NCBI GenBank assembly: GCA_965649765.1
Contig: OZ287748.1
Location: 36,952,001-37,016,000, forward strand
Direction: 5' to 3'
Source: Bispira polyomma
Taxonomy: Eukaryota
Length of the DNA stretch: 64,000 nucleotides
In this document: in pieces, positions 20,801-61,218 of the stretch
Position numbering within the stretch: position 1 is the first letter of the stretch
Layout of the letters: each line of letters starts with the position of its first letter
Made by a program: the position numbers and the translations under genes
Notes under the pieces: model-generated
Told to the model about the DNA's origin: nothing
Database searches by the model: none
The model's input: only the letters and a program-made list of their open reading frames with translations

Positions 20801-22510
20801 TCTTGCACTCCTTCCATGCTTGAAAATGGTGTTTATTTGTTTTGGATTATTGTCTTGGTCTTTGTAAAAACTTACTTATGGATGCATAACTTAGAATATA
20901 AAAAATTTAAGTCATGGTGTATGATACGACTATAAATGGTCAACTATGAACTTAAACAGCTATTACTGTATAAATGACAGTATCTGTATTTTACTAAATA
21001 TGTAACAAAGAGATATCTTTATTAACAAATAAAATTAGCCTTTTATATCTATTCAAACTGTCTATTTTAAGGGAAGGTAACATAGTGTTGAACATTATAC
21101 CACTACATCCTTGTAATTTACTTTATAATGTCTTCGCAAAATAAAATGCCAAAAACTAAAATGTTTTCCTGTATTATGGTTGGCATAAAAAAAGTTATAT
21201 GCAGAGATGTTTTGAAGAATCTGCGACAAAGAGTAACACCTGACAACATTACAGAAAAGGTTTCCATATGCTATATTCTTCTGTATGCTGACATTACTTT
21301 GTGGGAGGCTCCTTTAAACACCAAAGTAGAAGACAATAGCCTGCTGGGAAACCACATTAACTGATGTCGCCTTATTCAATCATGAAATGCTTTGAATTCA
21401 AGGCAACAGGAAGTTACATTATAGGAAATTTTAACAGTTCCAGCTAAATTTTGTATCATTATGTCAGTCTTCTCTAGTTTCATCTGTACAGATTCCCCCA
21501 CAGTGTTCTTCACAGTCTCTCTCTATTAGATTACTACATAGACTAAGTAATAATGGTTAAAACATAGAAAGTTATAGCTGATAAACTAGCTTGTCTCTAA
21601 TTTTTGTAATATCTTGTTGCAAACTTCTAGCTCAGCATGTTTTAACAACAGAATCCATCAAGTGATGGATAACGCCATTGTAGTGTCAATATATCTGCTA
21701 TGGTTAATACATTATATTAGTTTAAATATCTCATAATTACCATAGCACAACATCATAGCACTACCATATAGCACTGCTATAGCACCAACCATATGTTGGA
21801 GATAACAAGTGTTAACGAGTGTTTTGCAATTGCTTTTAGAATGGCATTTCCTTGCCATAGAATAAATATCCTTTTTGTGCTTGAATGAAAATTCATCAGC
21901 CTAAAAAAGTAAAAATGCATTTTTACTATGATATTGAGGTTAATTGTATCCATTCTTTAATGATACGTTTGACGCCCACTCCAGTGACTACTGTGAAAAG
22001 GTCAATTACAGGTCCATTATGGTTTTCCGCTGAAAGTGCCTTTGAACATCAATCAACAAATTAGGAAGTCACATAAACATATCTCAAGGAAGACAGTTCT
22101 ATTTACGGGGGAAATAATGCCATTACATCAAGACATAAGGCATATTGAAATGGTCTTTGTCTAACCTCTCTATTTTCTTCCAGTATATTCCACAATAAGC
22201 CTGTGGCCTATCTCCACTATTGTTGCAATAAATGAATAGGTTGTTTGTTCCAATTAGGTCAGAGTTTTTCCCCCACCTTTTCACTCGGCTGAATAGATAA
22301 TATGGATGTGACCTTCAGGGAGTCCAGAAAAAGACAGCCAATTAGTAGTGGTAATCCCATACGGGTAATTAGACCATACAAGATGATTTCCTTGCGTAAG
22401 TGGCCATTAATGGTGATTATTAGAAGCTACACCACACATTGCAGCCCACATTTAAAAAAACAAAACAATCGGAAGCTGTTTTTCCTAGATAAATTTAAGA
22501 TTTACATTCA
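17824..22510 (+). repeat. Intronic tandem segmental duplication, copy 2
   Basis: As for copy 1; background identity roughly 75-80% by eye, with near-identical blocks. Confidence 0.9.
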
Positions 22511-25117: not shown

Positions 25118-25288
25118 CTTAGATATTTAAGGTTGACATAGGAGTGTCAGACTGACTTAGATATTTAAGGTTGACATAGGAGTGTCAGACTGACTTAGGT
25201 ATTTAAGGTTGACATAGGAGTGTCAGACTAACTTAGGTATTTAAGGTTGACATAGGAGTGTCAGACTGACTTAGGTATTTAAGGTTGA
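25118..25288. repeat. 38-bp minisatellite, ~4.5 copies
   Basis: Unit cttagRtatttaaggttgacataggagtgtcagactga at 25118, 25156, 25194, 25232, 25270. Confidence 0.95.
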
Positions 25289-40515: not shown

Positions 40516-41599
40516 CTCTGATGTATTTGAATACCTTTATTGGTATGCAAAATTAAACAACCTGCTTTAAGCAAGAACTGCTTACACCAGCCAACCAGAG
40601 AATTTTTATATAGTTTACTTGAGGTTTACTATGGCTTTAAATACGCCTTGTGTCATATCACGACTGGCAGTTCAGTGGTGACAGAAATTAGACTGAGGTA
40701 GTTCGTCAAGGTTTGCTTATCTGCATGCAGCAGGTCCACTGCCAACTTTCCCATATACATGCTAGTGCCGAGATTCAACTCCTGCAAAGACTGCAAAGGT
40801 GGGTGGCAAGTGTATGCCCAGCACATCACAAATGGCCCCTGATTATTATCAAAGCAGCACAAATGGTCACAGTGAGACATACAGTATTCAGTGGTAAACA
40901 AGATATGGGTAATATACTGTAATGAGTTGCATAGTTTTCGTAGAAATCCTCCCAAGGGAGTTAGCGGGACTGTCATGTGATAACTCACCTTGTATTGAAG
41001 TTTTATATTTATATGTACACTCGTTATATTTAATAAATCTTAACATACCAGGTAAAGGTAGATAAATGCCACAATTGGTATTTTAGGATTTCGCTAACCT
41101 TTACTTGACTTCCCAAGTAACTGTTATTCTCCTAACTGTAGATAGCAGCTTGATGATGACCATTTATCAATGTCCCCAAGGTATTTTAGCCTTCCATTAG
41201 GGATAAAACCCAATAACAGTGGACCACCATTTTATGTGGTCATCTGAACCACTATGCTTCTGATTGTATCTGTTTGCTTTGTGTTCAAGTTACCCACGAG
41301 GCCACAGTTACCGATCTTCCTATTGTTATGACTGTGGCAGCATGAATGGACCCACATCTCCAAATTGATTACCATCAGTTCATAGTCACCAATAGATAAA
41401 TTGGACATATACCAAGCATCGACGGACTGAAGTGACTTTGTCATTAGCATACAGAGCAATGTAGCAGACATATAAAAAAAAATTTTTCTTTTATTTCTTA
41501 CAAACCTATATTGAGTGAACAAAGTGGACTATTTACAGATACAGCTATCTAACAAGGGTAAATATTCTTTATATGGGTTTATCATATATGTAAATGTCT

Positions 41600-41834
41600 A
41601 AATGTGTGTAGGTTTGTAGTCTCATATCACCTCTATTGAGCTCTCAGCTAACTTTACAGTTTACATCACCAGCCTGGGTTCTCCCACTTGGAATCAATTG
41701 TTCTGTCTCAACTCACTCAGGAAGCATACTAGCCATGCTCCCACATGCGGCACACAAGACCATAACACCCATTAGTGGCCAGGTACCCATTTATACACCT
41801 GGGTAGAGTAGGACAACTTTGTGTAAAACACCTT
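41600..41834 (-). mobile_element. SINE body, split by the Ngaro insertion (head at 48619-48700)
   Basis: ccaggtacccatttatacacctgggtagag...gtaaaacacctt resembles a conserved SINE central domain in reverse; it resumes as gtccaa...ggatcgaacc (reverse B box GGTTCGATCC) directly after B2. Confidence 0.65.
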
Positions 41835-42043
41835 TGCTATACACGTCTACTTCAGGAGACTGCTATCTCAGTCCACGTTAAATATAACACACCACCTTAA
41901 TTAAAAATTAGGTATAGCTATCTTCAGGGCATTTTACCATAGCTATTCTAGGGCCAATCACATTGCAGAAGTAATTAACAGTTCCCGGCTTTTCTTGGCA
42001 TTATACTGCCATATTGAAGCAACAAGTGAAAATTATTTTAACT
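41835..42043 (+). repeat. Split direct repeat A1
   Basis: Near-identical to 47292-47515 (a few substitutions and one ~15-bp indel). Confidence 0.95.
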
Positions 42044-42153
42044 TACATGGAGATTTATACAACATTTGTTTTTAGTGAATTGTTTTAAACGTTATATTTT
42101 ATCTTTTACTACATTATTAGCAAGGTGTTATTGGTTTTGTGTGTTTTACAATT

Positions 42154-43356
42154 ATGGGGAGGACGAGTAAAACTCCTCTGCAAGCAAAGAAGGCAGCCAA
42201 CCGGAAAACCAAGGTGTTAAGAGCTACAAGTGGGACAGAAAGTTCACAGGTAACTGATAATATTGTTCGGGCTCTTCGTAGCCACCTCGTCGAGGTTGAC
42301 GAACCATTAACTTCTACATCGAATGCTGCTCTGTTCCAGGCAGATCCCCAAATGCTTCAACCACCTATTAATTCACAGCCACCAGTAAATCCACCTAACG
42401 AGATGTTAGAAATTCTGAAAAGGTTAGAATCAAGGCTTGAAAAAGTTGAGGTGAGAACGGCTACAGTCACCAACTCGGCCAGTAATTCCAATCAGTTCAC
42501 GAGCAGTGCTGCAACTCTCGGACGGGGCAGCTCCACGGCTAACAGTCTACCTCTGCCATGTTATACTCCACCTACGGGAGCCGGAATTTCCCAGCAACCA
42601 CCACTGGGGCCCACACACCACAAATACAGACGAGATGGTATTGTGCCCAATTTAGAGACCTTTCGCTCCATGCCTGACGTGCAGTCAGCAGTCACACGTC
42701 AGTTAGCCAGTTATGAGTCGTTGGCGCAGAGGGAACTATCCCAAGGTAAGCAGAACCAGAGGGTCAAGTCTGGCAGGTTTAATTTGACTGATGTTGCCAC
42801 AGTTGATCCAAGATACCGTTGGCCCAACGAGGGCTGCTTAGCAACGAACGTCACCCCTTCTTCTCGTAAACGGCCCGCCTATGATGACCTGTCGCTACCA
42901 CAATGGGCGGCAGGACAAATCTCGAATGCGCTCCTTGTCGCAGACAACACAGCCATGAGGGACATGATGACCCAGGTAGTATTGGCGCTTCGAGACGCTT
43001 CGTCGTTACCCTGGCCCGTAGTGAGGACAGCATGGGCGTCTAACATGCACGAAGTTGAGGAGGGACGCTTGACGTGGCAAGATCACACGCAGTGGGCGCT
43101 GAATCGAATGAGAGCGTCCCAGTTAGCTATGGTTAATAACAATCACCAGGGTACATCCAATGCCACAGAACAGAAAACAATATGTAAGCTATTTAACAAT
43201 GGTAAATGCAGTCACAAAAATGACCATGGGAATTACAAGCATCAATGCTGGTATTGTGCCAAAGTCTTAGGAAAAGAATCTGGCCACCCTGAATTTAAGT
43301 GTTTTAAGGCAAACTCAAGTAAGCAATCTGACAGTCAAAATATAAAAAGCAGCTAG
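42154..43356 (+). CDS. Ngaro element 1 gag-like ORF1 (open, ~400 aa)
   Basis: Likely start ATG 42154 (MGRTSK); KSGRFN..DP..RWPNEGCL..YDDLS..QW.AGQ core shared with the 52641 ORF; C-terminal Cys/His finger CKLFNNGKC...H...HQCWYC...HPEFKC. Confidence 0.9.
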   Translation: MGRTSKTPLQAKKAANRKTKVLRATSGTESSQVTDNIVRALRSHLVEVDEPLTSTSNAALFQADPQMLQPPINSQPPVNPPNEMLEILKRLESRLEKVEVRTATVTNSASNSNQFTSSAATLGRGSSTANSLPLPCYTPPTGAGISQQPPLGPTHHKYRRDGIVPNLETFRSMPDVQSAVTRQLASYESLAQRELSQGKQNQRVKSGRFNLTDVATVDPRYRWPNEGCLATNVTPSSRKRPAYDDLSLPQWAAGQISNALLVADNTAMRDMMTQVVLALRDASSLPWPVVRTAWASNMHEVEEGRLTWQDHTQWALNRMRASQLAMVNNNHQGTSNATEQKTICKLFNNGKCSHKNDHGNYKHQCWYCAKVLGKESGHPEFKCFKANSSKQSDSQNIKSS

Positions 43357-46091
43357 GGAGATATTCGACAACCAGTTAAGCAACGAGGAACATTAGTCAA
43401 TACTGTAGATTTAAGAGTCAATGAGGACAACTTTTCTAGTAAAAATAATGTTAGTCATGTAGTAAAACAAAGTTGTAAAAAGAACTTATTTGGAAGGGGT
43501 AATGAAAATCAGTTAAATTGTAATAATAATATGTTACCAAATGTAATATTTGAGAACATTTGAGAAACTTATGGTGATGTTGAGTATATCCAGAGTCAGC
43601 AGTAAATGTTTCCACCTACCAGAGTGCAAGAGAAGGTCGACTTGGACTCTGGGGAGTGTAGCCTCAACTGGTGTGGGGTACTTAAAAATCTTAATGACAA
43701 AATTTATATAGGCCACATACAGAATGACCACACTGATAGGAAGGCCATCAGAGCAAAAATTAGTGTAACCAATTGGTCCTTATCTGATCTGGCCACTGGC
43801 AAGAATTTTAAAATCATTTACATGGAAGGACTTCATTGTTTGGTAAGAGGTTTTTACTATACCTATGTTGATAATGTCACTGGTTTGCAATGCTACACTC
43901 CCCTGGACTTCAAACCGAATGGTATGTTATATATTATTAATGTTTTTGAGCCATTGATTAATAGAGACCATGAGATAACAATGGTAAATTTAGATGGCAT
44001 TGAATATGTTTCGGTTAAGCAACAAGAGCAAGCCAGTAATGATTTCTATTTTTACCAAAGAGGTATGCAATGTCTAAATTCAAATGGTAAGACATATACT
44101 CAATTTGTAGAAAATATAATTGATAAGTTAATTGAACATTGTGAAAATGTAGAATTAGTCAACACTGATGTAAATGTAGAGCCAACAGACAAGGCTGTAC
44201 AGAATGGACATAGTAGCTCTGACACTACTAAAAGCATGGTAAGTTATTGTGATGAAAAATATACTCACCCTGCGTCGTCCGAGTTCTTCTCCCAAATGAC
44301 TTACATGACTAAGGCTAGTGAACCAACCAATAGGGTGGTCACGGACATTAACGACAAAGATAAGACTGTAGGGTTCATTGCTCTTTCAGATACTGATTTT
44401 GAATTTCAAGGACCAGTTAAGCAGCCAATACAGATAAAATCAGTGGAAGACATGATTACAACTGCTCAAATTATAAAACAAACAGGAGTTCCAAGTTATA
44501 GATCAGCTAAAATTCCACTAAGTTCTGGACTTAACACACAGGCTTGGCAGCACATGCTGCAGGATTATCCTGACAAGCTGTTACTCCAATATATTACATT
44601 TGGTTTCCCTTTATGTTTAAGGACTCCTACTAAATTAGAAAATGTTAAGGTAAAGAATCATTACTCTACAGTATCCCTATGAGGTTGGGGCATATCTTAA
44701 AAAAGAAACTGCTTTAGGGGCCATGTTAGGTCCAGTTAAGGAAGTAAACACTTCAGACTACCATTGTTCGCCACTTCTCATTAGACCCAAAGATATTAAT
44801 AAATGCAGAGTAATTTTGAATTTGTCACATCCTTATGGCAACTCCCTTATTGACAATGTCGACAGGGACAAATTCGATGGCGTGTCATTTGTATTAAAAT
44901 TTCCGACAATTGATGACATCACACAAGCCATACGGGATACTGAAAACGCAACCTTATTTAAAATTGACGTGGCCAGAGCGTTTAGAAACTTAAGGGTTGA
45001 CCCTGTGGACGCAATAAAGCTAGGAATTTCTTGGGAAAATGAATACTCTGTGGACCCTGCAATTGCGTTCGGGTGGGTTCATGGAAGTGCGGCTTTTCAG
45101 GGATGTACGGAAGCAATTACAGCACATATGTAGAAACAAAGCTTTAAGGTATTCGGATAAATAGATGATTATGTTTGCGTTACTCATAAGGATAAAGCCA
45201 TGGAAGGTTTTAACAAGCTTCATACATTGCTACTGGAGCTTGGTCTACCGATGAACCAGGATAAACTAACTCCACCAACTGATAAGCTTACTTGTCTAGG
45301 AATCGACTTTGATATCACTAAAGGAATTATAAGTATACAAACAGACAAGTTAAAAGAAGTATATGACGTTTGTATTGAGGTTCTCCACAAACAGTACATA
45401 TCTAAGAACAAATTCCAGTCATTATTAGGCAAGCTCCTATATATTCATAAATGTGTTACTCCGGCCCGAACCTTTGTGAACAGACTATTGGCTGAATTTC
45501 GAGCTGGCCATGCGAATAAGCGTTTTAAAGTAACTAATGAAATAAAAAAACGACTTGCTATGGTTCAAGAAATTCTAAGAACACTACAATGGTATTAATT
45601 TCATTAACCATAACGTTATACCATATGCAGACGAGCTGCACTTAGACGCTTGCCTCACAGATTTTGGGGGCGTTTGGAATGACGAGGTTTATGCCACTCC
45701 GTTTCATGACATTTTTGATGGAAAATTGACAATTGTACACCTCGAGATGCTGAACAATATAATCGCTTTACGTGTATGGGCTGAGAAGTGGAGACATGGT
45801 AGTCTTATGATCAACTGTGACAACATGGCTGTGGTTCTGGCTGTCGAATCACAAAAAACCAGAGATAGTTTCCTGGCCTTATGCTTAAGAAACATCTGGT
45901 TACTAACAGCCACTTATGACATTACTCTTAAAATTAGACATATACCTGGTAAGAAAAATGTAGTTGCAGATGCACTGTCTAGACTGTATTCAGACATGGT
46001 ATCGGATCAAGAGCTTATAAATAAAATTGACAGTAATTTTAAATGGCACCAAGTGCCAATTGAATATTTCAATTTCGACTTATCTATATAA
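43357..46091 (+). pseudogene. Ngaro element 1 pol (N-terminal extension, RT, RNase H), disrupted
   Basis: HCSPLLIRPK, FKIDVARAFRNL, AFGWVHGS, catalytic YIDD read as *IDD (~45158), HLDACL, NCDNMAVV, HIPGKKNVVADALSR; several stops and frameshifts. Confidence 0.92.
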
Positions 46092-46097
46092 TTTCAG

Positions 46098-47072
46098 GTT
46101 CTACATACATCAGCCAAGCTCTGATGGTGTCAGCCAATGCCAGAATTGACCTAGCTTTAAAACCAAAGACAACTACAGCATACAATGCACAGTTTAAGAC
46201 CTTTTTAGCCTTTCTTAAGTTCACAGGAATTGCTACCGTTAATGTACATTCAGTTATTGCCTTTTTGGAGTACCTTGTGCAGAATCAGTTATCACCAGGG
46301 GCTATTAACAACTACTTAGCAGCTTTAAAATTTGTAGCATCCAAGTTGAAATGGAATCTGACTCCATTTACACATAATGCAGTCTCACTATTCACTAGGA
46401 GTTTCACACATAATTCAGCTTTCAGACCAAAACCTAGAGGCATTTTTACCATAGAACAGCTTATTCGCATATCTAGAGCTTGTGAAATCCTGGATGACCC
46501 CTTACTCTTTAGGACTATCTTCTTAGTAGCATTTTTTGGATTTTTGAGGTTATCAAATATAGCACCTCATTAAAAATCAGCCTTTGACAACACCAGGCAC
46601 TTCCTAAGACAGGATGTCGTTTTTGGTCACCCAGGAGCTCACTTGATCTTAAAATGGGCCAAATTTACAAAATCGAACTGACACTCACATAATTCAGATT
46701 CCAGTACTGGACAATTCACACATTTGCCCAGTGTTAGCCCTACAAAGATTGCTTTCGTCCAGACAAATTTCGGACAAGGCCCCACTGTTTGCATCAAAAA
46801 TTCCACCATATCACACAATTATCGATTCACATGTCAGATATGCTTTACAAAAGATTTTACAACACATTGGTATTCAACATAGTTCACATGGATTCCATGC
46901 CTTCAGAAGGTCGGGAGCCACTTTTGTATTCAATCAAATCGTCTCACTCCAGGACATTATGGCCCACGGATTATGGAGGTCATCTGCTGTGTGGACATAC
47001 TTACAAAATACTTCACAGGCTGCCTCAATGGTACCTTTAACCTTTGCCTCTGCCATCTCTCATTCCTCCTAG
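46098..47072 (+). pseudogene. Ngaro element 1 tyrosine recombinase, disrupted
   Basis: FFGFLRLSNI, LILKW, LCPV, HGFHAFRRSGA, HGLWRSSAVWTY (R-H-R-W-Y catalytic set); stop at 46571 and frameshift near 46665. Confidence 0.93.
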
Positions 47073-47079
47073 GTTTGGC

Positions 47080-47515
47080 TTGGGGCTGTAAAAATTTGTG
47101 ATGTTTAAATAAATTTTTAAGCATTTTACTTTTTTATATATTATCATGTACATATACTACTAACATGTAAAAAATAAACCCTCAAAGTGAAATCTTTTAC
47201 TATCTGTGTTCATAAACTTGACTATAACTTACAAATTTGAGCTCTCTGATATAATTCTGACCTTCTATATCAACCTTAATAACGGGGACTGTGCTATGCA
47301 TGTCTACTTCAGGAGACTGCTATCTCAGTCCACGTTAAATATAACACACCACCTTAATTAAAAATTAGGTATAGCTATCTTCAGGGCATTTTACCATAGC
47401 TATTCTAGGGCCAATCACATTGCAGAAGTAATTAACAGTTCCCGGCTTTTCTTGGCATTATATAGCCATATTGAATTTGACTTCGAACAAGCAACAAGTG
47501 AAAATTATTTTAACT
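47080..47515 (+). repeat. Internal B1-A2 junction repeats
   Basis: B1 (ttggggctgtaaaaat...aacggggactg) abuts A2 (tgctatgcatgtctacttcagg...), reproducing the end-to-end circle junction. Confidence 0.95.
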
Positions 47516-48404
47516 CCCACCACCTCCCCTGAATACCACAGCTAGGACTAAGTCAGTATGAGGACCAGTTGGGACTCTAAGTAAACAAAAATTAGTAACA
47601 ATGAATGTAGATGCTAAACCGGACGTAACATGGTAAATGTTGAATTTTGTAGATCGAAATTACTTGTAGTCACTTTGACTTATTACAAAAAGGGTTACTG
47701 TAATGCTCCTCTGGCTGTGTGGAATGAGGGTTCTGCCTTCTTATACTTTCCTCTGAGTTCATGTCTAGGGTTCCAGAGTAGAATAGAAGCTCTAAGAGGT
47801 TTAACTCTCGTCCGCTAGGCGATTCGGTGTCCAAAGCCAGGGGTAGCCGAAAAGCAGTCAAGTTGAATAAAATAAGGAAAATACATTTAAAGGGGGGCAT
47901 TTGTCATATCAGTGTTAATGTAATGGTAGAATGATCACTTTATATATGTGTGTCAGTATGAAAACGCGTCACGTGTGTTTAAATGGTGACAAAAATAATA
48001 AAGTGTGGTTAAATATGTGAAATGGCTCATTTAAAGGGCACTTGACTATACGTTTATGGCCTGTTTACAAGCAATGAATGCTGGAACATGAAGGAATTAG
48101 TTACAACCAAAAAACACCGTTTATGGGTGGGTTATGGCTGTTTGGGGTTGTCAAAACCTTATGATACTTGCAAATATTTAGAACACCAGTAACCATCAAT
48201 AACAGAACTATAGATTATTTTTAGTTATTTTAGTTTGATGATTAAAAACTTACTGCTATTATTAATCATGTTATACGTACTGCAAAGTGTATTTTGCTAA
48301 TTGTTTACTGTTTCGTATAATGAATATTATAAAATATGATTTTTGTTTTGGCTAGTCCTGTAAATTTGGCTAGTCCTGGTTTTATCATTGTTAGTTTTGC
48401 CTAG

Positions 48405-48618
48405 TTGGGGCTGTAAAAATTTGTGATGTTTAAATAAATTTTTAAGCATTTTACTTTTTTATATATTATTATGTACATATACTACTAACATGTAAAAAAT
48501 AAACCCTCAAAGTGAAATCTTTTACTATCTCTGTGTTCATAAACTTGACTATAGCTTACAAATTTGAGCTCTCTGATATAATTCTGACCTTCTATATCAA
48601 CCTTAATAACGGGGACTG
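48405..48618 (+). repeat. Split direct repeat B2
   Basis: Near-identical to 47080-47291. Confidence 0.95.
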
Positions 48619-49045
48619 GTCCAACAGTACAATTTCCAGGCCTCCAGCGCGGATCGAACCAGGGCTCTGAGATCACTCAAATCAAAGTCAGTAACGTCAC
48701 TGTTAAGTGTAACAGTAACTGCAAAGTATCCTTAGCATGGCCATTTAGTCGCACAAATCCACCTGCTTACGGTAATGATTGCCAACACACTTGTATATCA
48801 ACAAATATCCAATCACATAAATAGTACAAAACGAATAACTTAATTTAATGCAGGGAATTGTTTTCCCGCCTTTTCATTATGTAGCCACAAATTAATTAGA
48901 TGACAAAGTGTTAACATGTATAATTTCGTCCTAACCTGCTACCTATTTTCTTGGAAAATCTGTAGTTATATGGGTTGTTTTGAGGTTAAATAAGCTCCAA
49001 TACTATGTACAAGGTCAGTTGACCTTTTCTCATTGTCATAAATAT

Positions 49046-49260
49046 TTGAATGGCAATGTTTTAAAAATTTCTAAACTTTTTGGAATTTTCTGTAAAGTTA
49101 TAAATACAGGCAAATGTGTGTAAATAAATTATCCCAAACTAGCATCATCCTTTTTTACTTTCACAAGATCAGCAGTTTCATACCTTACTCACAAGGTCAA
49201 TATCACCTTGAACCCTTGAGGTCAAACTACAGTAACCTGACATTAATCTTGACTTAGCTA
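49046..49260 (+). mobile_element. Old remnant resembling the post-YR (B-like) region of Ngaro element 2
   Basis: tggca...tttctaaa...ttatcccaaact.gcatca...caaggtca.....cac....ccttga.ggtca aligns loosely to 59980-60150. Confidence 0.5.
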
Positions 49261-52200
49261 CATAGATACCTCATATATTCACACATTGAGTATGCGGTTG
49301 AAATACACAGAAATATGGAATTATAAATAAGGATAGTTATTCTATATGTCATATAATAAATATATATATAAGCAAGCTGACAAATAAAGAGACACAAATA
49401 TATAACAGAAACCTTCAGATTAACCAAGTCTTTTTCCCTCTATAAATACATTAATGGCTTCATTTAAGGTAATGGTACTTATTAATGGAGTGATTTCGTC
49501 AAAAGGTTTGTGTACAGAGTGTGGACAAGCACCCTAATTATTGTAATCTCCACTTTATCCAAATGTATATTGCATTAATCCTGGCCTTGCTGGGAACTGG
49601 GAACAATGGCAAAAATTAAATATTGAAATACACAACAAAAACAATGACACACTACTCAGACAAAAAGCATTTTGTCATAAGAAACTACAGTTAGATGTGG
49701 GTCACATTGTCAATGAAAGTACTTTTAAAGATAAAAAAAAAAAATACATTTTTTTTTTCATCAATAATAAAAAGGCCAAAGTACAAACACAAAAAGAAAA
49801 AATCTAACTTTCTGAAAGGAACCAGATAAAATCCACCTCATATATCAAATTCCTTTGTTAGAGATTGTTTTCATTGCAGCAATTCTGCTACAAAACAGTG
49901 GCATTATTTAATATACCAATACATCCCTTTATCTAACACAGCTCGCTAATAAAATTTTGTCAGCTCTGACGTATTCGTTGGTTATTAATAGTTGTATGGC
50001 TATAATCTGCCGGGGCGAGACACCACTGTGATACATGGGATTGTTTTTTTTTTGTAGATAAGGTATACACAGCTCATCTTGTTTAGCAGTTTGTACATAT
50101 TGACTGCTAAACAAGATAATTATTCTTAATCGGAACTTAGTTCGGCTTTTATGTCGCTTTAACTGCTTAGGTCATATCACAAGATATCATTTAGACCAAC
50201 TTACGGTAAGTACCTGACAAACTTCACCACATCAAGGAATGAACAGGATTTGTACCCACATTGTTGCTGTCCCCTATGTTATGAAATAGTCTCCCTGTTG
50301 GGCTTAGCCCACTTAAAACAATTTCTGGTTTTGAGGAAAAAGCTTAAACTATCTTTTAAAACTAGCCTACCCCTTTAATTTCCGCCATCTACACCCCTAC
50401 ATCCGTCCTTACGACCTTAGCTATGTTTATGGACTTCCTTATTGGTTATCTGATTCTGTTGTTGCGCTTTAGAAAATTCCTCGCATCAGTAAGACATGTT
50501 AAAAACCACTTTGACTAAGGGACCATAATCTTAAGATCAAAGCAAGATTTCTATACTTAATTATTAGATCTATGGGGGTAGTGAACACCAAGGTAAACGT
50601 GAAAGCTATCCGAACGTTTAATGACCGTTTAATGACCAATGTTATTGCATTAATGTTTTGTATATAGGTCAAGCTTGTTAGGAGTAAAAATTAGAAATGT
50701 ATTGAAAAATATAGGTTTATCACTTGGCAAAATTGAATGAACATCTGAGTTGGTATTCTAGAAATAAACTCATGCTTAAACTCACATTTAACTCACATAT
50801 AGGCTGTGTGGCAATCATTGCACATGAAAATAACTTGTGACCATTCATTTTAATAGAGCTTTCAGCACTGAATTTAAATATGCAGTCAGAAATATGGTTA
50901 CTGTATCCAGAGTTACAGAGAATGCAGATTTGAGTTGAGTATGTGCTGACTATACGTTCGAGAATACAAGCCCTTAACCAATAAAATGGAGAAAAATCTA
51001 CAACTTAGGAGTCAAACTTAAACCCCAACAAAATAGTTTATGACAAAATGAATAACAGGGTGAATTACATTTAGACCAAACATTGTTGATTTGCTATGGG
51101 CGACATATACATTAACAGGAAGGCAATTCAGGGCAAGACCCAATATATGAGACGTGATGTGATACTGTGAAATCAACTTCAAAAGGATCAGGCTTTGGGT
51201 GTATATGGTGGCCCTTTGTAAACACTTGTGTTACATTTGCAAATATATTGGAAAACATATTGTGTTAATTATGTGATACATTTAAGCTCTGTTAAAAATT
51301 GTGCATTAGAGATGGGGCCAAAATTTGTATTTTTATTTTTGAAGTTCCTTGTTAATGCTAGGCATCTTCTAAAGCACAACATCAGAATGAGTAAACCAAT
51401 AGAGAAGTCATATTACTTTGGTATGGAGGGCTCTAGGATCAATATTCACTGTTGGTCTTCAGATTGTATCATTAGGCAATCTTATTAGTAGAAGATATCT
51501 AAATTGGTGACTAGCCACTAATGGGCGTTAGTTTGTACCTTTGTATGGTGGTATATATAGCTGTAATTGGGACCTCAGAAAGAAAAATTCGTGGACAAAG
51601 TAACAGGGCCAGTATTTCTGAAATGTCTGCAACTTAAACTCACAAGAATCTCAAATGCCTTACTGTGTATTTATGGACAATCTAATCGAATCTAATCAAT
51701 TCCATAATTGCGCTTATGTCAGGAGGGATAAGCCAGTGCAAATCTTTTAGAACAGGAGATATGTGGGAATACTCTGAGGTATTTGTGACGATACTAGCTA
51801 GAGTATTCTATATTGCCTGAAGGCAAGAAATGTCCTTGGCAGACAAACTGAGTTATGGGAATGAGTTACAATGGTCAATGTGACTGCTCACAAGTGCATT
51901 AGAAATAGCAGGCAATAGGCACAACATCGATACCTAACATATGACTGTATATTAGAGTTTATCAATGAAAGCTAAACATGGATGGTAACCTGACTATCAA
52001 CAAAAAATATATATAGTTGTGGGTTTTTGAGTTTAAGCTCAATCTTAAGACTTTTAATAAGGTACAGAATGAGTAGCTTTGTTGAGAAATGTAGACTAGA
52101 TGGATAAACTAGCAATATTAATGACATATCGCCTGGGTATGTGAATTGTATAGTAGGATGGAAACCCATATAAAAGGTGACATCAGACTATATAAACCAA

Positions 52201-52640
52201 TATTTACATTTCCACTTTGGCCCCCACAGGTTCCCGTAGACAGCTCAAATCTCATTTTCAAGTTTACCGTGCTGATAGACCTGTGAACGTCACTGCAGAC
52301 CTTAAGTCCGCATGGCATTTCAGGCGCTAAAAAGTAGAAGTTTACTGTAAGATTATTTGTATACCAACCTAAAGCCAATCAGATGGCAGATTAAGACCAA
52401 TTAAATACTTGGATTCCTGGGCGTTTTCCTGCCTTTCCTATTATGTTAGCATTATAAAATTTGAAAGCAACGAGACAACCAGTAAAACATTTGAAGAAAA
52501 GGAAGCCATATTGGATTTTATGAAATATTTTACAAACACAAGTGATTTTAGTGTGTTTACATAAGGTTTTTAATTTTTCTGTTATAGAATAAGATTTTAT
52601 GATATATATTTTACATTATACGTACCATTAACTGTGAGTT

Positions 52641-53972
52641 ATGGGTTGTGGAAAGAAAAGAAACACAACAGATACGGCTTTGTGCTCAAGGTGTGCTATT
52701 GTACACAAACGCCCCGTCGGAATCAGATGTAAGCTGAATACTGGAGAAATCGTCTTACACAGTACTGTGAGTATGGTTGATGAAGATACTTCCCCCGTAG
52801 TAGACTCTCGAGAGAGGGCAGATACACAAAGTGACATAGATTTCTATCGAGAAGGCTATGAAAGGCAGCAATCCATGATGGAAATGCTAGTAAAAACAGT
52901 TTCAAAATTGCAAGAGGAAGTCTCTAGCCTTAAAAACGACACATCTAATGTACACAAACAACCAGTCGCAGTCGAACCGAACCCCAGGAGTGAACTTCGG
53001 ACAGCTCCAGACATCTGTCACCAACACCCCATACCAGCACCGAGACCTGGAGCGAACGCCACAACTACAGTACCTCGCCATAATAACCCATTTTTACCTA
53101 CATCTAACACGTCAGAAGGACTAGGTCAGGGACGCGTTTGCGACATGTACGTTGCTCCTACACAGTCAGTTCAAGGTAATCATCAGTGCTCGTGTAGTGC
53201 AAACATACCAGTACAACAACCAATAGGAGACACCTTTCCACAATGTGCTCTACAAGACAGCATCATCCCCAGCACAGAAGTTTTAAAACAATCGTCGATT
53301 ATACAAAACGAAGTCAGCCAAAGGTTAGCACAGTATGGAACTTGGGCGAACGACGAAACTTTCCAAGTTAAGCTGCTTTCTGCAAAACGTAAATCAGGCC
53401 GGTTTAACGTCTCTGAAATTTGCACCACTGATCCGTCGCTAAGGTGGCCAAATGAGGGATGTCTCGCTGGAGTCAGTAAGAAACGTGTGTCTTATGACGA
53501 ATTAACAGTGGCACAATTCGCAGCCGGACAACTTCAGAATGCTTTAGAAGTGAAAAACCCAGTAACTTTCAGAGCTATGCTAAAGCACCTCGCTGATACC
53601 TTAAAAGATGCTGCTAATATTTCTTGGCAAGTAGCACGCGGTGCATACGCTTCAAATATGCACGATATTGAAGAGGGTCGCCTAACTTGGACTGAAGATA
53701 CCAGATGGACAATGAATCGTCTATCCTACTCTCAAGCGCTACTATCGAACGTCTCCACGTCTGACGTCACTTCGTCTACAAAGAAACTAGAACTCCCCTG
53801 TAAGCATTTCCAGAAAGGCCAATGCCAACACAAAGGAGACCATGAAGGGGTGACAGCAACCTTCAAACACGCTTGTGCGAATTGTTTTAAGGTCAACAAG
53901 AGGTTCAATCCTCACCCTGAAAGTAAATGTTATAAGCTACATGGAAAGCCAGGAACAACGACTGCTCAATAG
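52641..53972 (+). CDS. Ngaro element 2 gag-like ORF1 (open, 443 aa)
   Basis: N-terminal CSRCAIVHKRPVGIRC, core KSGRFN..DPSLRWPNEGCL..YDELT..QF.AGQ, C-terminal CKHFQKGQC.H..DH...HACANC...HPESKC. Confidence 0.92.
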   Translation: MGCGKKRNTTDTALCSRCAIVHKRPVGIRCKLNTGEIVLHSTVSMVDEDTSPVVDSRERADTQSDIDFYREGYERQQSMMEMLVKTVSKLQEEVSSLKNDTSNVHKQPVAVEPNPRSELRTAPDICHQHPIPAPRPGANATTTVPRHNNPFLPTSNTSEGLGQGRVCDMYVAPTQSVQGNHQCSCSANIPVQQPIGDTFPQCALQDSIIPSTEVLKQSSIIQNEVSQRLAQYGTWANDETFQVKLLSAKRKSGRFNVSEICTTDPSLRWPNEGCLAGVSKKRVSYDELTVAQFAAGQLQNALEVKNPVTFRAMLKHLADTLKDAANISWQVARGAYASNMHDIEEGRLTWTEDTRWTMNRLSYSQALLSNVSTSDVTSSTKKLELPCKHFQKGQCQHKGDHEGVTATFKHACANCFKVNKRFNPHPESKCYKLHGKPGTTTAQ

Positions 53973-56579
53973 GACATCCAGCTAACATCAGCCAGCACCA
54001 CCAGGGTCGATACGTCAGTGTATAATAGTGAAAGGTAGAGTTCAAAAATTAACACAGCATATGACAATGAAATTCACAAAAAGTTAAGGACGAACAATGA
54101 GAACCATTTTTATTCATGTGATAATGTAATAACAGTGAAATATAATGACAATGAAAGTAGCAGTGTTAATGAAGCTACTTTTAACTCAGATAATTCTGAG
54201 ATAATGACTGAGATTGACAATGAACTTAAAGATAGTAAACAGTTTTCTAACATTGATATCTACATGACCAGTGGACAGCCACACAGTATCATGGAACCAT
54301 TGTATTATATTGTATGTCAAAGTGATGCATGTTTTTCAGGAGTTTATAACTTAACATATAAGGACGACCAACAGAATTTTAACATGACAAATAAGAAACT
54401 TCAAGACATATGGCCAGTCACATATGTTACCACCATTAGAACTGAGATTATTACAAAGACCACTGTTATAAAGAATAACAGTTTCAAAAGACAACAGTTT
54501 ACAAACACAAATAGAAACACACACACAAGAACAAAAATGAGTAATACTGATTATAACAAAAATGAGTCATACTGATTATTACTTAAATATCATTGATAAA
54601 ATATGTCAACAGCAGACAAATAAACACACACACAAACATACACAAAAGAAAGAAATAATACATAAAAAACTTCTATCACAACATTATGATTTAGAACAAA
54701 AATCACACAAAAACGAGGACTTTATAACAAAACAGGACAACATCGCCATACAGGACTCCAATAAGGAACCAGACTTCAAAGGACTGACATACTTGGAAAC
54801 AGTGTTAGAAAATGAAGACTATTATAAAAAGGACAATAAGGAAAGGGCTTATGGTTTTGTTCCTTGTAGCTTTAAAGACTTCCAATTCATAGGACCAACC
54901 AGACAGGGTGTGAACATAAATTCTTATGAAAAATTGGTCGACATAGCTGAAACTATTAAGAGAACAAAACAACCAAACTACAAGGTATCACGAATCCCAA
55001 TTGAATGTAATCTAAATATAGACAATTGGAAGAAACATTTAAGAGATTACCCAAATCAAATCTTACTACAATATTTGGAATTTGGTTTCCCTATTTCAAT
55101 ATACGAGAGAGACAGAATAAAACAAAAATATCTCAAAAATCATTATTCAGCAAAAATCTTTCCTAAAGAAATTGATAAATATTTTTTGACAGAAATTACA
55201 AAAGGTACTATTATAGAAGCAAATAATGAACATTTACATGAAGACCTACATTGTTCACCTCTACTGACCAGACCTAAGGACACTGACCAAAGGAGACTAA
55301 TTTTAGACCTGTCATACCCAAAGAGGCATTCAGTGAATGATTGTACAGTAAAGACTGAATATGACGGTGTCAGATTTGACTTAAGATTACCCACCATCGA
55401 CATGATCACTACTCACATTAAAAATTTAGGTGATACAGCTACCATAGCAAAGGTGGACGTTGAGCATGCGTTTAGAAATTTAAGAATGGATCCATTTGAT
55501 TGTTTAAAATTAGATTATTTTTCGAAAGACAGACACTACATAGATTGAAGCCTAACTTTTGGATTAACTCATGGCACTACCATTTTTATGATGGCATCAG
55601 ACGCAATAAGATTCATTATGAAACAAAAAGATTTTACAGTCTTTAACTACATAGACGATTTTGTTATTATAGAAAATGAAAACACAGCAGATTTAGCATA
55701 CATTATGTTACAACAACTTCTAAATGACCTAGGTTTACCCATCAACAAAAAGAAACTTGTGCTACCCAGCAAACGGGTTACCTGCATGGGTATAACCATT
55801 GATATCAATGAAGAAACATTGAGTATAGATCAAGATAAATTGGTTTCAATAAAAAAGAATGTATCACCTTTGAAAATCTAACCAAAGTACCCAAATACAA
55901 GTATCAGTCCCTCTTGGGTAAACTCCTCTATGTACACAGATGTGTGAAACCAGCTAGGATATTCATGAATCGCATGCTATCTTTGTTAAGGAATTCAAAA
56001 AGTAGTGCAAAAATTCATTTGGATAGTAATTTTAAGAAGGACTTACAGTGGTTCATTAAATTCCTGCTAAAATTTAATGGAACGACTAAATACAGCTTCA
56101 AAAACAAAACCCATGAAGTACTCTTTCAGGTAGACGCTTGCTTAACAGGTATTGGTGGAGTATCTGGAAACAAAGCATTTAAGACAGCACTACCAATATT
56201 TTTGACTCAAACCCTAACTATAGTACATTTTGAAATGGTAAGTGTACTAATAGCACTAAAACTGTGATCACCCGAATGGAAAAACGAAAAGATAAAAGTT
56301 TTATCAGACAATATGGCAGTGGTGGCTGTTGTTAGCTCATCCAGGACACGAGACGAATTGTTAGGACTATGTTTAAGGAATATATGGCTGTTGTGTGCTC
56401 ACCAAAATATTGACTTAATGATAGAGCATATCCCTGGAAAGGATAACACAATAGCCGACACACTATCTGGGTGGTACGAACCAGGACATTATGGATAGTA
56501 TAAGGAAAACTTACTATTAGGTAACTTGGACATTAAAGACATACCAGTTGACATGTTTATAATGGACACAGAAATATAA
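53973..56579 (+). pseudogene. Ngaro element 2 pol (N-terminal extension, RT, RNase H), disrupted
   Basis: HCSPLLTRPK, RLILDLS, KVDVEHAFRNL, FNYIDDF, QVDACLTGIGG, SDNMAVV, HIPGKDNTIADTLS; multiple stops and frameshifts. Confidence 0.92.
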
Positions 56580-56590
56580 TATATTTTCAG

Positions 56591-57168
56591 ATACACCAGC
56601 TATAGCTAGACGTCTAGTACAGACAGCAGGAGAAAGGATACGACAAAGCCTTAGACCACGTACGACAAGATTATATGACAATCAATTTAGATTATTCTTG
56701 AGTTTCACCATATATTATGATTTTAAGGACACTTTTGGCTATACCAGCATAATAGCCTTCCTTGAATTCCTGACACAAACTGGAATTTGTTATCAAGTGA
56801 TAAATAACTACCTTTCAGCCCTCAGACACAACTGTAAAGTTTTCAACATACACCAAACTGGCCTATATGACCAAAGGTTATCATTATATTTGAGGTCACT
56901 ACAACTCACCTCAAACTTTACACCAAAGGTCAAAGGTGTCTTTGATTTACATCAATTACAACAGATTTCAAAAAATTGTAACTCGTTACACTTTCCTGAG
57001 CTGTTCAGGACAGCATTTCTTTTTGCATTCTTTGGTTTCTCAAGAATTTCAAACCTAACAACTACCTCTGGTGTAGATTTTGACCAAACTCGACACATAA
57101 CAAGGTCAGATATAATTATAATACACCTGATATTGAAATGGTCGAAAACCAACCAAAGTAGAAATACA
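56591..57168 (+). pseudogene. Ngaro element 2 tyrosine recombinase, 5' part
   Basis: LRPRTT..YDNQF, NNYLSAL, FAFFGFSRISNL, LILKWSKTNQSRNT, then interrupted. Confidence 0.92.
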
Positions 57169-57215
57169 ACAGAGTTAATACTTGGTGTGAGAGAAATTTG
57201 TTTAATAGTCAAATT

Positions 57216-57284
57216 GCCTGATATATAGCTATTATGTTGTATATATTTCGACCTGAGGTATTGGTCAAAGGTCTCTTCAGAGGC
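57216..57284 (-). ncRNA. Type I hammerhead ribozyme
   Basis: Minus strand: GCCU-CUGAAGA-GACCU(14-nt loop)AGGUC-GAAA-UAUAUA(12-nt loop)UAUAUA-UC^AGGC. Full catalytic core, stems I-III, AUC cleavage triplet; predicted cut between 57220 and 57219. Confidence 0.9.
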
Positions 57285-58765
57285 TGATGTGATATTTAGG
57301 ATTTTTGTCCATTAGGTACAAAAACCTGCACCGTTGGGCACCGCCCATATAGGTGCAGAGGTGCAGAAGGTGCTAGGCGGTGCAGTAGGTGCCAGGCGGT
57401 GCAGGGTTTATTTGATTGGAAAAAACAGAAAAAAGTTCTTTCCTGTTTAAGGGGTGACCTTTTTGAGTGTCATGATGATTAATGGTTATGTACAAAATAG
57501 GTCTGTTTCCATGGCAACACTCATATTGCATTCAAACCTATAGCCCTCATAATGACTTATGTGGGTTGGGTGTGTTGAAATGGTAAACAGATGCTGGTGA
57601 GCACATTCCAGGTAAATCAATTAAGTCAGAAATAATGCCATACTCTTTCTAGTGGGTAAAGCTATGTGGGTGCAAGTGACAGGGGGTGGTGGCCAGGTCA
57701 GAAAATCCATGTTGGGCATAATATGGTATCCCCATTGGTTGCTGTTATAGCCTGGTTTTATGTTAGATTTTACCATGAGATCACACCTTCTTATACTTGA
57801 ATAAGGAGGCAAAAAAATCCATAATTAGGTAACTGTGATTACACTTATTTTGGTGGATAAGTGGGTCAGGCTAGAAGGTATAATTCCAGATATATCAAAA
57901 AATGTACTCAAAATTCGTATATGTACTGTGTGTACTTTTACGAATTATGAGTTGTATAGTTTGAATAATGATAAACTGAATCATATCTTAAAAAGACCTA
58001 TTGAGAATTAGGACAATAGGTGAGTACTGTGTGGGTTGATACACATCAGGGGGCCAGAAAAACACATAAAAATACTCAATGCATTTTTTAATTAGTATAT
58101 AATTAATGATTATAAACTGAAATGTACAAGAAATTGGAAATTTCTCTATCCCGGATAATTATCTAGTTCTGATAATTAAAACGAATAATAATATTAAAGC
58201 AAATATGTTGTAGAGTAATGTCACTTTGTTGATATTACAAGAATATATTTAAATCATATATATATACACATATGTATATATATATATATAAATAAAACAA
58301 ACTTACACCACTGGGTGAAGAAAATAATTGAATATTCAGGTGAGTTATTTATTTTAATAACTGGTATCCAGGAGGCTGTCAAAGTTGATGTTGCTAATGC
58401 TGGCCATAATATCATCTGGTGGGGATAAGTTCATCAGAATTTCATGAAATGATTCTGAGAGATAATCATACTGGGAGGACTGTAGTGGGTCCTCAGACTG
58501 TAGTGAACCTTAGTGGTGTTGGAGGTAACAGACGGTGGAGATGTCACTGACTCAGAGTACGGAGTAAGTGGTGGTGAGGAGCTGATCAATATGTTGCAAG
58601 CCTCAATGAATGATCCATCAGATCCTGATGAGGAAGTGAAATAGCTGTCAATAGTGGGAGTCCTGGGTGTTGAGGTGGGGGTGGTGTCCCAGCTGTTGTT
58701 CAATGCTATTCTGTTATCTTCCAGAATCATCATGTCAGTGTTAGTGGTACTGTCACTAACACTGC

Positions 58766-59524
58766 TACTCCAAACAGAACCTCACCAAACATTATAAAAG
58801 GGCATCTCAATTCACCCAAGATGAACTCCTACAAAAAACCACCAAACCAGTGACGGACAACCCTGTCATGGTAACTCAGTACAACCCAAATAACCCCAAC
58901 ATCAGGGAAATAATCAACAAAAACTGGAACATCATCCAGAATACTGATGGCCTTGCCAATATCTTCACTGAACCTCCCATAATAGGTCACAGGAGATTAC
59001 CAAACCTCAGGGACCAATTATCAAGTTCTAAGATTTGCTACCCTCCAGTAAACAGTACAACTATTAAAACTATACCCACAGTTTGTACAAGACTTGGAAA
59101 ATGTACTTATTGTCCACTCATAAAAAAAGTGGATCATATCATCAGCCATCACACCACTAAGCAGTTCGAATGCATATCTATTCCACCTAATCCCAAACTT
59201 ACTTGTGAACTCAAGAATGTCATTTATGTAATCACATGCCAAAAATGTGGATTACAGTACATAGGGGAGACTAAAAGACCCCTTAGAAACAGAATGTATG
59301 AACATAGAGCAAGTGTCACTAAACCTGGTCAGAATAAACTGACCCCAGTGTCCAGACATTACAGTACTAACCAACATACTGTTAGAGACATGGAGTTTAG
59401 TGTACTGCAATGGCTAGGCCACACAGAAGACCCAAATAGTACACAGAAACGCAAACGACAGGAAATGTACTATATTTGGGCCTTCCCTACTATTGCACCA
59501 ACAGGCATTAACCTACATGTTTAG
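58766..59524 (+). CDS. Penelope-like RT thumb/linker plus GIY-YIG endonuclease (C-terminal fragment)
   Basis: YSKQNL..YKRA, PVMVTQYNP, NKNWNII, PPIIGHRRLPNLRDQL, Cys linker CTRLGKCTYC, NVIYVITCQKCGLQYIGETKRPLRNRMYEHR, RKRQE..YI, PTGIN. Confidence 0.93.
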   Translation, partial: YSKQNLTKHYKRASQFTQDELLQKTTKPVTDNPVMVTQYNPNNPNIREIINKNWNIIQNTDGLANIFTEPPIIGHRRLPNLRDQLSSSKICYPPVNSTTIKTIPTVCTRLGKCTYCPLIKKVDHIISHHTTKQFECISIPPNPKLTCELKNVIYVITCQKCGLQYIGETKRPLRNRMYEHRASVTKPGQNKLTPVSRHYSTNQHTVRDMEFSVLQWLGHTEDPNSTQKRKRQEMYYIWAFPTIAPTGINLHV

Positions 59525-59593
59525 ATTTCAGCCCTCTACTGTATTAGTTGATACCCCTAATACCCCTTACATATTTATCAAAGTAGAAATACA

Positions 59594-59971
59594 CCTGATA
59601 TTATACAACTCCCAGAATTAAGCAACCCAGTTAAGACAGTTACACAGTTGTTTCAAAAATACCCACTGAAAGATACAGCCCCACTGTTGGCTGACCCAAC
59701 ACAACAATGCAAATGCCTCACAGATTCAAAACTAAGGCTTGCCCTTAAACACACACTTACATAGAGTCAAATACCACATGAAGATCACTCATTCCATTGT
59801 TTTAGAAGATCAGGTGCTTCACTAGCTTTTAATTCTAACATTAAGTTACAACACATACAAAAACATGGTTGTTGGAAATCTGATGCAGTTTGGTCATACC
59901 TTCAAGCTACCTCTCAGGCAGCTTCAATTATCCCTACCACCTTTGCTGCTATCATCCCCTCTAACTTTTAA
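59594..59971 (+). pseudogene. Ngaro element 2 tyrosine recombinase, 3' part
   Basis: Continues in frame after the TSD: PDIIQLPEL...HSFHCFRRSGASLAF...HGCWKSDAVWSYL...IIPSNF*; one internal TAG. Confidence 0.92.
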
Positions 59972-61218
59972 TTTGGCTTTGGCATTTTCTAAAACTTTTA
60001 ACCTTAAAAATTTTTGTATAGAGCTCTATATAGAAATTTTATTGATGACAATAAAATTTATCCCAAACTGCATCAAATTTATCAACTCAAGGTCACAATC
60101 ATAATTCCTAACCTGCAAGGTCATCACTTCTGACCTTGAAGGTCATATACCCACTTTTGAAAGCGACTGACACATAATCCTTGGGTAAAGGGATATTAGA
60201 CTATATAGCCCAACATTTACATTTATATATTGGCCCCCACGGGTTTCCGTAGTAAAGGCTAAACATCATTTTTAAGGTTGCAGTGCTGATAGACCCAACA
60301 TAATGATAAAAGGTGATATCAGACTATATAAACCAAGATTTACATTTATATATTGCCCCCACGGGTTTCCATAGTAAGGGCTAAACCTCATTTTCAAGGT
60401 TACAGTGCTGATAAACCTCACATAATCAAAGCTGATCACAGCCACACTGATGTAGTCAATCACCACTGATTGCTACTCCCACTATTATGAAACAAAATAC
60501 GACCAACTAACTCAGGGACTTGCAGAGAGAAAACCAACAGATAAAAAAAAATGACTTGAGCTGAAGATGTACATGGGACCTTGCTTTATGGAGTTTTATG
60601 ATGTTTTTGTTACTTTCCCAACCCAGTAATTATGGTATGTGGTCGGTATCTCCACATGTATATGAATAGTGTAATAATACTGGGCCAAACATTTGTTGTT
60701 TATCTTCAATTGAATTACAGGACAGAGATTGATAATTTTTTAAGTTGACATTATAAAAAAATAATAATACTGGAATATGCAAATGCTTAAAGTTCTGATA
60801 AATAAGCTGATGATAACTATGGAAACCCAACACTAAGGTTTAAAAAATACAGAAATGTAAGCCAATGTTAATTACAACCTATTACAGAATTTTAGACATG
60901 GAAGCTATAAACAACTGTCTTCAAATTTTGACTTGGTTTAGGTTTACATTATTATTGTCAGACTAAATAAACTGTCCATTTTGCTCAGATTCCTTACTGT
61001 CATGTTGACGACAGAAATCGAGAAAAAAGGACAGAATGGAATACAAAAGGAAAACATTGTCATTTACACACATTAATAATCATCCTGAAAATCTATTGTA
61101 AAAGAAAGGAATGGCTGCATTAACATCTTTATGTAATAGGATTCTTCCATGTATATTATATGACATCAACATATACACAAAGTTTAGATGGCTTTGTGGC
61201 CTTTGTTGCCCATTGTTG

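Follow-up and report, generated by a model that had tools for sequence, protein, structure and literature searches.

A single in-frame stop codon between gag and pol in Ngaro-type tyrosine-recombinase retrotransposons, a candidate for translational readthrough

A 64,000-nucleotide (nt) stretch of the Bispira polyomma contig OZ287748.1 (assembly GCA_965649765.1, positions 36,952,001 to 37,016,000), hereafter the window, is AT-rich, eukaryote-like DNA that carries two decayed retroelements on the + strand. Judged by its anatomy, each is a tyrosine recombinase (YR) retrotransposon of the Ngaro type, in which a TAG followed by G ends gag and pol continues in the frame of gag. This architecture of one frame interrupted by one stop is very likely real. 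By comparison of sequences, it spans two distant lineages of elements, which use different stops. Translational readthrough of the stop that ends gag seems the best mechanism for the expression of pol, and we hold it to be moderately probable.

The initial annotation correctly placed the end of gag at AGC TAG GGA in element 1 and at CAA TAG GAC in element 2, and the frame offsets it gave to the following ORFs, 1467 and 1494, are right as well. The only further stops before the element 1 open reading frame (ORF) at 43606 are a TGA at 43561 and a TAA at 43603, all in one frame; in element 2 a single TAG intervenes before the ORF at 54135, which is likewise in frame. The common frame proposed for gag and pol holds in element 1, and in part for element 2, where the in-frame ORF (54039-54575) represents a linker and the reverse transcriptase (RT) lies in the +1 frame (54541-55548). 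The frame changes where 25 nt are duplicated in tandem (54530-54579). The suggestion that the extra stops of element 1 arose through C>T changes could not be established, small indels being equally possible. The TGA lies inside a 10-nt tandem repeat (43548-43566), and a codon-phase model run at five penalties departs from the gag frame at the lowest of them, over precisely 43560-43609, an interval that includes both stops, and stays in it at the remaining four; both flanks of this interval favour the gag frame.

Stop codons are strongly depleted beyond the TAG. The gag frame contains two stops over 43357-44370 of element 1 and one over 53973-54530 of element 2, against 26.7 and 13.9 expected from dinucleotide shuffles, and none of 2000 shuffles gave counts as low in either element. 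The depletion persists when only the first ~80 codons are considered: two stops versus 7.7 (P 0.012) and one versus 5.7 (P 0.018). Beginning with the codons right behind the TAG, codon phase and stop depletion both point to the gag frame, and the junction layout is beyond chance in the window elements. The pol profile aligns from codon 43 of the element 1 linker frame, while the linkers themselves could not be aligned to homologs. No slippery heptamer (X-XXY-YYZ) occurs within -200 to +250 nt of either stop, in agreement with the annotation, and a -1 frameshift is rejected because both a heptamer and a gag/pol overlap are missing. Purines occupy six of the eight spacer positions after the TAG in element 1 and four of eight in element 2, both copies being decayed.

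Intact distant relatives carry the same layout. A pol-pattern scan of GTDB gave 26 matches, from which four loci (L001-L004) were obtained. Their contigs are titled as bacterial metagenome-assembled genomes (Sedimenticola, Desulfobulbaceae), while the YR elements on them are of animal type with spliceosomal-type signals; the contigs are probably host contamination in the GTDB genomes. In L001, L002 and L003, gag and one TGA are followed, without a change of frame, by a pol that stays open for 624, 622 and 647 codons, respectively; L004 starts within pol, and three of the four loci display gag-stop-pol. A YR gene follows pol in all three (ended by the contig end in L002), and an SGNH hydrolase gene comes next in L001 and L003. 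The gags of these relatives are homologous to the window gag (hhalign 95.7%, E 9e-9). In a quick tree with long branches the three form a separate long-branch clade, and both window elements fall among ENA proteins. The stop contexts are UGA-CGU, UGA-CCU and UGA-CGG, with C at +4 in all three. Across the five elements gag ends in UAG or UGA and never in UAA, and pol ends in UAA-U throughout, though the latter lies within a splice-acceptor tract. The 12 codons that separate the stop from the first Met in L001 and L002 comprise four identical, four synonymous and four non-synonymous ones; L003 has a 9-nt indel in this interval.

Gag homologs were used to ask whether the stop belongs to the lineage. 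When cluster representatives were searched with the element 1 gag, 807 homologs came up at E<=0.001, and tails were analyzed in the best 150 of these plus P0202, of which 57 (of 151) have a terminal Cys/His motif. Gag ends 8-19 residues after the last Cys in 35 of the 57, sooner in two and later in 20. Five of the 20 long tails share at least seven tail residues with a terminating relative, and the residue at the relative's stop is Q, W, Y, Y and Q. TAG is the sole stop one substitution away from all three residues, so the loss of the stop in these homologs points to a TAG at that site in relatives known as proteins. The extension of P0091 aligns to the N-terminus of the pol protein P0161 (E 8e-19, 40% over 122 aa), and P0202, one of 53 pol proteins, combines the gag C-terminus and pol in a single ORF. 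The position at which gag terminates is thus conserved, and in homologs that have lost the stop the frame can continue into pol.

The beginning of pol offers no comparable regularity. In the 44 of the 53 pol ORFs that have the PNY motif, the first Met stands anywhere from 73 to 487 residues before it, and the best-conserved upstream Met (19 of 33 rows) is inside a conserved domain and is replaced by Val in element 1. The first in-frame AUG past the gag stop is found at +177 nt in element 1 and +234 nt in element 2, behind four and eight out-of-frame AUGs, respectively. By these alignments a pol start codon is not conserved in the window's clade, and the scattered Met positions together with remote in-frame AUGs behind out-of-frame ones argue against reinitiation in it.

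The recombinase appears to be expressed by another route. All five elements have a phase-1 acceptor at the same place after the pol stop, and four (element 1 and L001-L003) have a phase-1 AG/GTA donor in gag (slashes mark splice junctions); at the matching place (53368) element 2 reads AG/TTAAG. These phase-matched sites support the annotated idea of a GagN-YR product made by splicing, which we regard as a prediction from the splice-site sequences. Phase-1 acceptors also precede the SGNH hydrolase ORF (L001:4734, L003:4490), which suggests a possible GagN-SGNH product from the same gag donor in L001 and L003.

Expression of these elements could then proceed as follows. An unspliced RNA would carry gag and pol in one frame, divided by one retained stop. 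Most ribosomes would terminate at this stop and yield Gag; a minority would decode it with a near-cognate tRNA and yield a Gag-Pol fusion (~1,300 aa in the window's clade), which would carry RT and RNase H into the particle. The codon bypassed would be UAG, often followed by G, in the window's clade, and UGA-C in the distant one. The recombinase, and the SGNH hydrolase where present, would be produced by splicing from the phase-1 gag donor to acceptors past the pol stop. Stop suppression as a property of the lineage, which the initial annotation had put forward, is upheld as far as one frame with a single stop to bypass is concerned, in the intact relatives and the stop-lost homologs. Its gammaretroviral detail is not: +4 G is not clearly enriched, the intact relatives use UGA-C, and neither a stem-loop nor a pseudoknot was found 3' of the TAG by folding and pseudoknot search in either window element.

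Several results weigh against readthrough. Folding 3' of the stop gave z-scores of 0.7 to 2.2 for elements 1 and 2 and -0.7 to 0.6 for L001-L003, with no stimulatory structure, and pseudoknot scores do not exceed those of shuffles, though decay could have erased a pseudoknot in the window copies. G at +4 occurs in approximately four of six roughly independent lineages compared with a first-position background of 26%, which is unconvincing. An intact copy from the window's own clade was not seen as DNA. The remaining 15 of the 20 long gag tails are not registered to a terminating relative; the next-best of them, P0115 (6 of 13 tail residues), reads T at the stop position. Only one of six gag extensions tested against the 53 pol proteins has a clear pol match. 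Searches of the pol N-terminus (Pfam, Atlas, Foldseek, VIA-align) found no protease to free RT from the fusion, therefore Gag-Pol would remain fused or be cut by the host; the result fits reports of YR elements without protease in the accessible part of PMC3783388. An in-frame AUG lies at +39, +39 and +18 nt in L001, L002 and L003, which also contain a sequence resembling an acceptor at +70 to +79. Finally, in the available text on Tca2, a Candida albicans long terminal repeat (LTR) retrotransposon, the junction alone gave no readthrough despite an identical-looking layout (PMC2194720); a gag-stop-pol layout is therefore no guarantee of simple readthrough.

An alternative that we consider unlikely is that pol is made separately, through termination-reinitiation, internal initiation on unspliced RNA, or a small internal promoter. 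The frame common to gag and pol would then be left over from an ancestral single ORF. LINE-1 ORF2 provides a precedent in its reinitiation, and the nearby in-frame AUGs of L001-L003 speak in favour of this reading. Tca2 has both a junction promoter and a non-canonical bypass, according to the portion of PMC2194720 available. Set against this are the distant first in-frame AUG of elements 1 and 2, the lack of a conserved start Met, and the codons ahead of the first Met, which are depleted of stops and evolve like coding sequence.

Slightly less probable still is an alternatively spliced pol, in which the gag donor would be used with an acceptor just past the gag stop and pol, like YR, would be attached to the N-terminus of Gag. 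Splicing seems to be in use for YR and SGNH, the site at +70 to +79 common to L001-L003 is a phase-1 TTTTTRCCAG, and element 2 has a phase-1 site at +220. Such phase-1 acceptor-like sites, however, number 5-8 per pol ORF and are built of common codons, and element 1 lacks any less than 1 kb from the stop. Moreover, an open, in-frame stretch between stop and acceptor would not be needed for splicing, but is present in all five elements.

RNA structure at the stop brings in a third possibility. A 150-nt hairpin of L001 and L002 (-132 to +22; L001:1576-1730 and L002:2773-2926; z -6.5 and -6.0, matched in 0 of 200 shuffles) holds the UGA in its 3' arm, and the gag stop is thereby paired with gag sequence upstream of it. 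Among local structures by strength, this hairpin ranks first of 13 in L001 and third of 16 in L002. One compensatory pair distinguishes L001 from L002; on three sequences, covariation does not reach significance (62 of 500 shuffles). The hairpin is absent from elements 1 and 2 and from L003 (z 0.6), where the UGA lies in the arm of a short local hairpin found without shuffle control. Since the 3' arm would be covered by a ribosome positioned at the stop, the long hairpin could hardly serve as a standard 3' stimulator; a role in adenosine-to-inosine (A-to-I) editing is possible. Editing within a long hairpin would convert UGA or UAG to Trp on some transcripts, as at the amber/W site of hepatitis delta, and the position of the UGA in the hairpins of L001-L003 agrees with this. 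We nevertheless regard recoding of the stop in RNA as very unlikely: the long hairpin is missing from three of the five elements and lacks significant covariation, and the A of the stop is paired to U with a 5' G, a poor ADAR context. A second strong hairpin lies ~240-430 nt upstream (L001:1300-1466, L002:2473-2709), so the structure of these RNAs may have unrelated causes.

A still broader scheme can be drawn, in which a broad animal Ngaro-type clade would make every one of its proteins from one promoter: Gag itself, a Gag-Pol that arises when the stop is bypassed, and, through alternative splicing, GagN-YR and GagN-SGNH. At least one subfamily would use a bypass signal unlike known classes, the 150-nt hairpin pairing the stop with upstream gag, acting via A-to-I editing or termination control; as a whole we find this scheme rather unlikely. 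In element 2 a weak stem (54030-54209, z -2.3) pairs the second in-frame TAG with a complement ~140 nt downstream (54030-54182); it was rejected as a stimulator, being weak and beginning 60 nt too far downstream. Duplex scans in elements 1 and 2 found nothing, and Rfam gave no match in L001-L003 or in 41500-60500 of the window.

The reading that the shared frame is chance among decayed copies, or the TAG a copy-specific lesion in a single gag-pol ORF, is most improbable and already largely refuted: both window copies are broken in several places and the element 1 linker may hold small indels, but the single stop is kept in the intact relatives, 35 of the 57 gag homologs end at about one place, six roughly independent lineages agree on the frame (~0.004 by chance, as an estimate, if they are independent), and, as weak evidence, no long gag-containing protein was found at 701-2000 aa or 754-2150 aa. 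A GTDB contig scan with the gag pattern produced 16 matches, none of them confirmed.

The assignment to Ngaro rests on anatomy, the tree rows all being unnamed and without named Ngaro references. It fits because of split direct repeats, gene order and lack of a methyltransferase, features by which Ngaro is defined in the accessible text of PMC8547959, PMC4157794 and PMC9210276. Element 1 is arranged as A1 - gag - pol - YR - B1A2 - B2, with the split direct repeats A1-[ORFs]-B1A2B2; corresponding repeats of element 2 were not found in the two stretches queried. Gag, RT/RNase H and then YR lie on the same strand, and Pfam identifies RT, RNase H-like and integrase SAM domains in the window, with no match for the element 1 gag. 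Intact pol homologs stop after RNase H without a methylase match, and the window pols end at the same place. The gags of the two elements are only 41% identical over 250 aa and therefore represent different families. A DIRS1-like identity was rejected, since element 1 is bounded by direct rather than inverted repeats. A PAT-like (Pat1) identity has the Cys/His zinc-finger motif at the gag end and the split direct repeats in its favour; it was rejected for want of a methyltransferase domain in pol. The gap between A2 and B2 of element 1 is ~890 nt (47516-48404), compared with the compact B1A2B2 described for Ngaro.

The elements thus share with the Ngaro superfamily (order DIRS) the repeats A1-[gag, RT/RH, YR]-B1A2..B2 and the missing methyltransferase, and the relatives L001 and L003 share the SGNH hydrolase ORF after YR with amphibian Ngaro (PMC9210276, PMC8547959 and PMC4157794, in the parts available). 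By contrast, those parts describe Ngaro ORFs as overlapping, frameshifted or separate, with no word of a gag stop in frame with pol, of readthrough or of splicing for YR. Further differences are the long pol N-terminal linker and unnamed domain of the window's clade and the absence of a hydrolase ORF from element 1. The generalization in the initial annotation that YR elements usually have overlapping ORFs applies to pol and YR of DIRS1-like elements, but Ngaro is usually without overlaps in the available sections of PMC3266345; overlaps are reported in Xenopus Ngaro in those of PMC9210276.

Among known recoding systems, the Type III readthrough of gammaretroviruses (Moloney murine leukemia virus) likewise has one gag/pol frame and a UAG soon after a Cys/His knuckle, followed by G (PMC3159437 and PMC13517186, in part). 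Our elements differ in having no predicted H-type pseudoknot, no protease past the stop, a YR instead of a DDE integrase and, in the distant relatives, UGA-C. The latter recalls Type II readthrough of alphaviruses, tobraviruses and furoviruses (UGA-CGG or UGA-CUA; PMC3159437, in part): the motif is exact in one of three relatives (L003), and the other two have C at +4. Here the extended 3' stem-loop of Type II was not found, and L001 and L002 instead pair the stop with upstream gag. Tca2 has gag-stop-pol in one frame on one RNA (PMC2194720, in part), but is an LTR element with protease and integrase.

No report of stop bypass in YR elements was found in a literature search that did not cover the main YR reviews, the papers of Goodwin and Poulter, or Repbase, and its novelty is provisional. 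The accessible text of two recoding reviews (PMC5009743, PMC13517186) does not mention 'DIRS'; further prior-art papers, likewise seen in part, were PMC6681497, PMC7192593, PMC12440569 and PMC9341512. The ORFs of YR elements are described in the literature, as far as its text was available, without an account of how RT and recombinase are expressed. Gag-Pol by stop bypass and YR by phase-matched splicing would offer a complete and testable scheme. If true, gag-pol readthrough, known from gamma- and epsilonretroviruses and a few LTR elements, would reach into a distinct order of retroelements, in which deeply separated lineages have different stop contexts (UAG-G and UGA-C) and a protease is apparently missing. 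The junction stop also affects annotation: it makes intact elements seem broken, and pol ORFs receive arbitrary starts.

Table 1. Features of elements 1 and 2, in positions of the window.
Feature	Position	Strand	Remarks
Split direct repeat A1, element 1	41832..42043	+	91% match to 47289-47515; core 187 nt, 5 mismatches
Element 1 gag	42154..43356	+	400 codons; Cys/His knuckle-like C-terminus; ends at TAG
Predicted phase-1 donor AAG/GTAAG in element 1 gag	42743..42751	+	intron would start at 42746
Element 1 gag stop TAG then G	43354..43357	+	candidate bypass site
Element 1 pol linker	43357..43737	+	hypervariable, N/D/S-rich, gag frame; stops 43561 and 43603 copy-specific
Conserved unnamed pol domain, upstream of RT	43738..44154	+	five-strand sheet and two helices
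Element 1 RT and RNase H region of pol	44330..46091	+	ends TAA-T
Predicted phase-1 acceptor TTTCAG/ right after element 1 pol stop	46085..46098	+	from sequence
Element 1 tyrosine recombinase	46098..47072	+	broken after 46571; Phage_int_SAM_1 E 4e-7; HAFRRSG motif in translation
Adjacent repeats B1 and A2, element 1	47080..47515	+	B1 47080-47291, A2 47289-47515
Repeat B2, element 1	48405..48618	+	98% identical to B1
Element 2 gag	52641..53972	+	443 codons; TAG at its end
Element 2 gag stop TAG then G	53970..53973	+	candidate bypass site
Element 2 pol linker	53973..54579	+	in frame with gag; second TAG at 54036
Rest of element 2 pol (RT, RNase H)	54580..56579	+	broken near 55850; ends TAA-T; RVT_1 E 8e-8
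Predicted phase-1 acceptor before element 2 YR	56578..56591	+	
Element 2 YR	56591..59971	+	interrupted ~57185-59570 by insertion with GIY-YIG ORF (edges approximate)

In addition to the internal stops, the element 1 pol is broken near 44676 and 45580. Its unnamed domain occurs between the linker and RT in the pol proteins P0151-P0203, and residues 45-120 are predicted to fold with high confidence. No usable match to it was obtained in Pfam, Atlas, Foldseek (PDB, BFVD) or VIA-align (best Z 4.8); this lack of matches does not establish a new fold. The domain is apparently eroded in element 2 and was not seen in L001-L003.

The insertion nested in the element 2 recombinase gene contains an ORF at 58760-59524 with a GIY-YIG domain (PF01541, E 5e-6), and is presumably Penelope-like. 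A 122-nt repeat family lies on both sides of element 2, at 52170-52290 and, in tandem on the 3' side, at 60183-60426. Elsewhere in the window, 14276-17218 and 19489-22457 form a diverged duplication with a spacing of ~5.2 kb and blocks of 73-96% identity, and tandem arrays occupy 3372-3568 (63-nt units) and 25118-25307 (38-nt units). On the opposite strand, a stop-to-stop frame of 247 codons without a Pfam match spans 34363-35106.

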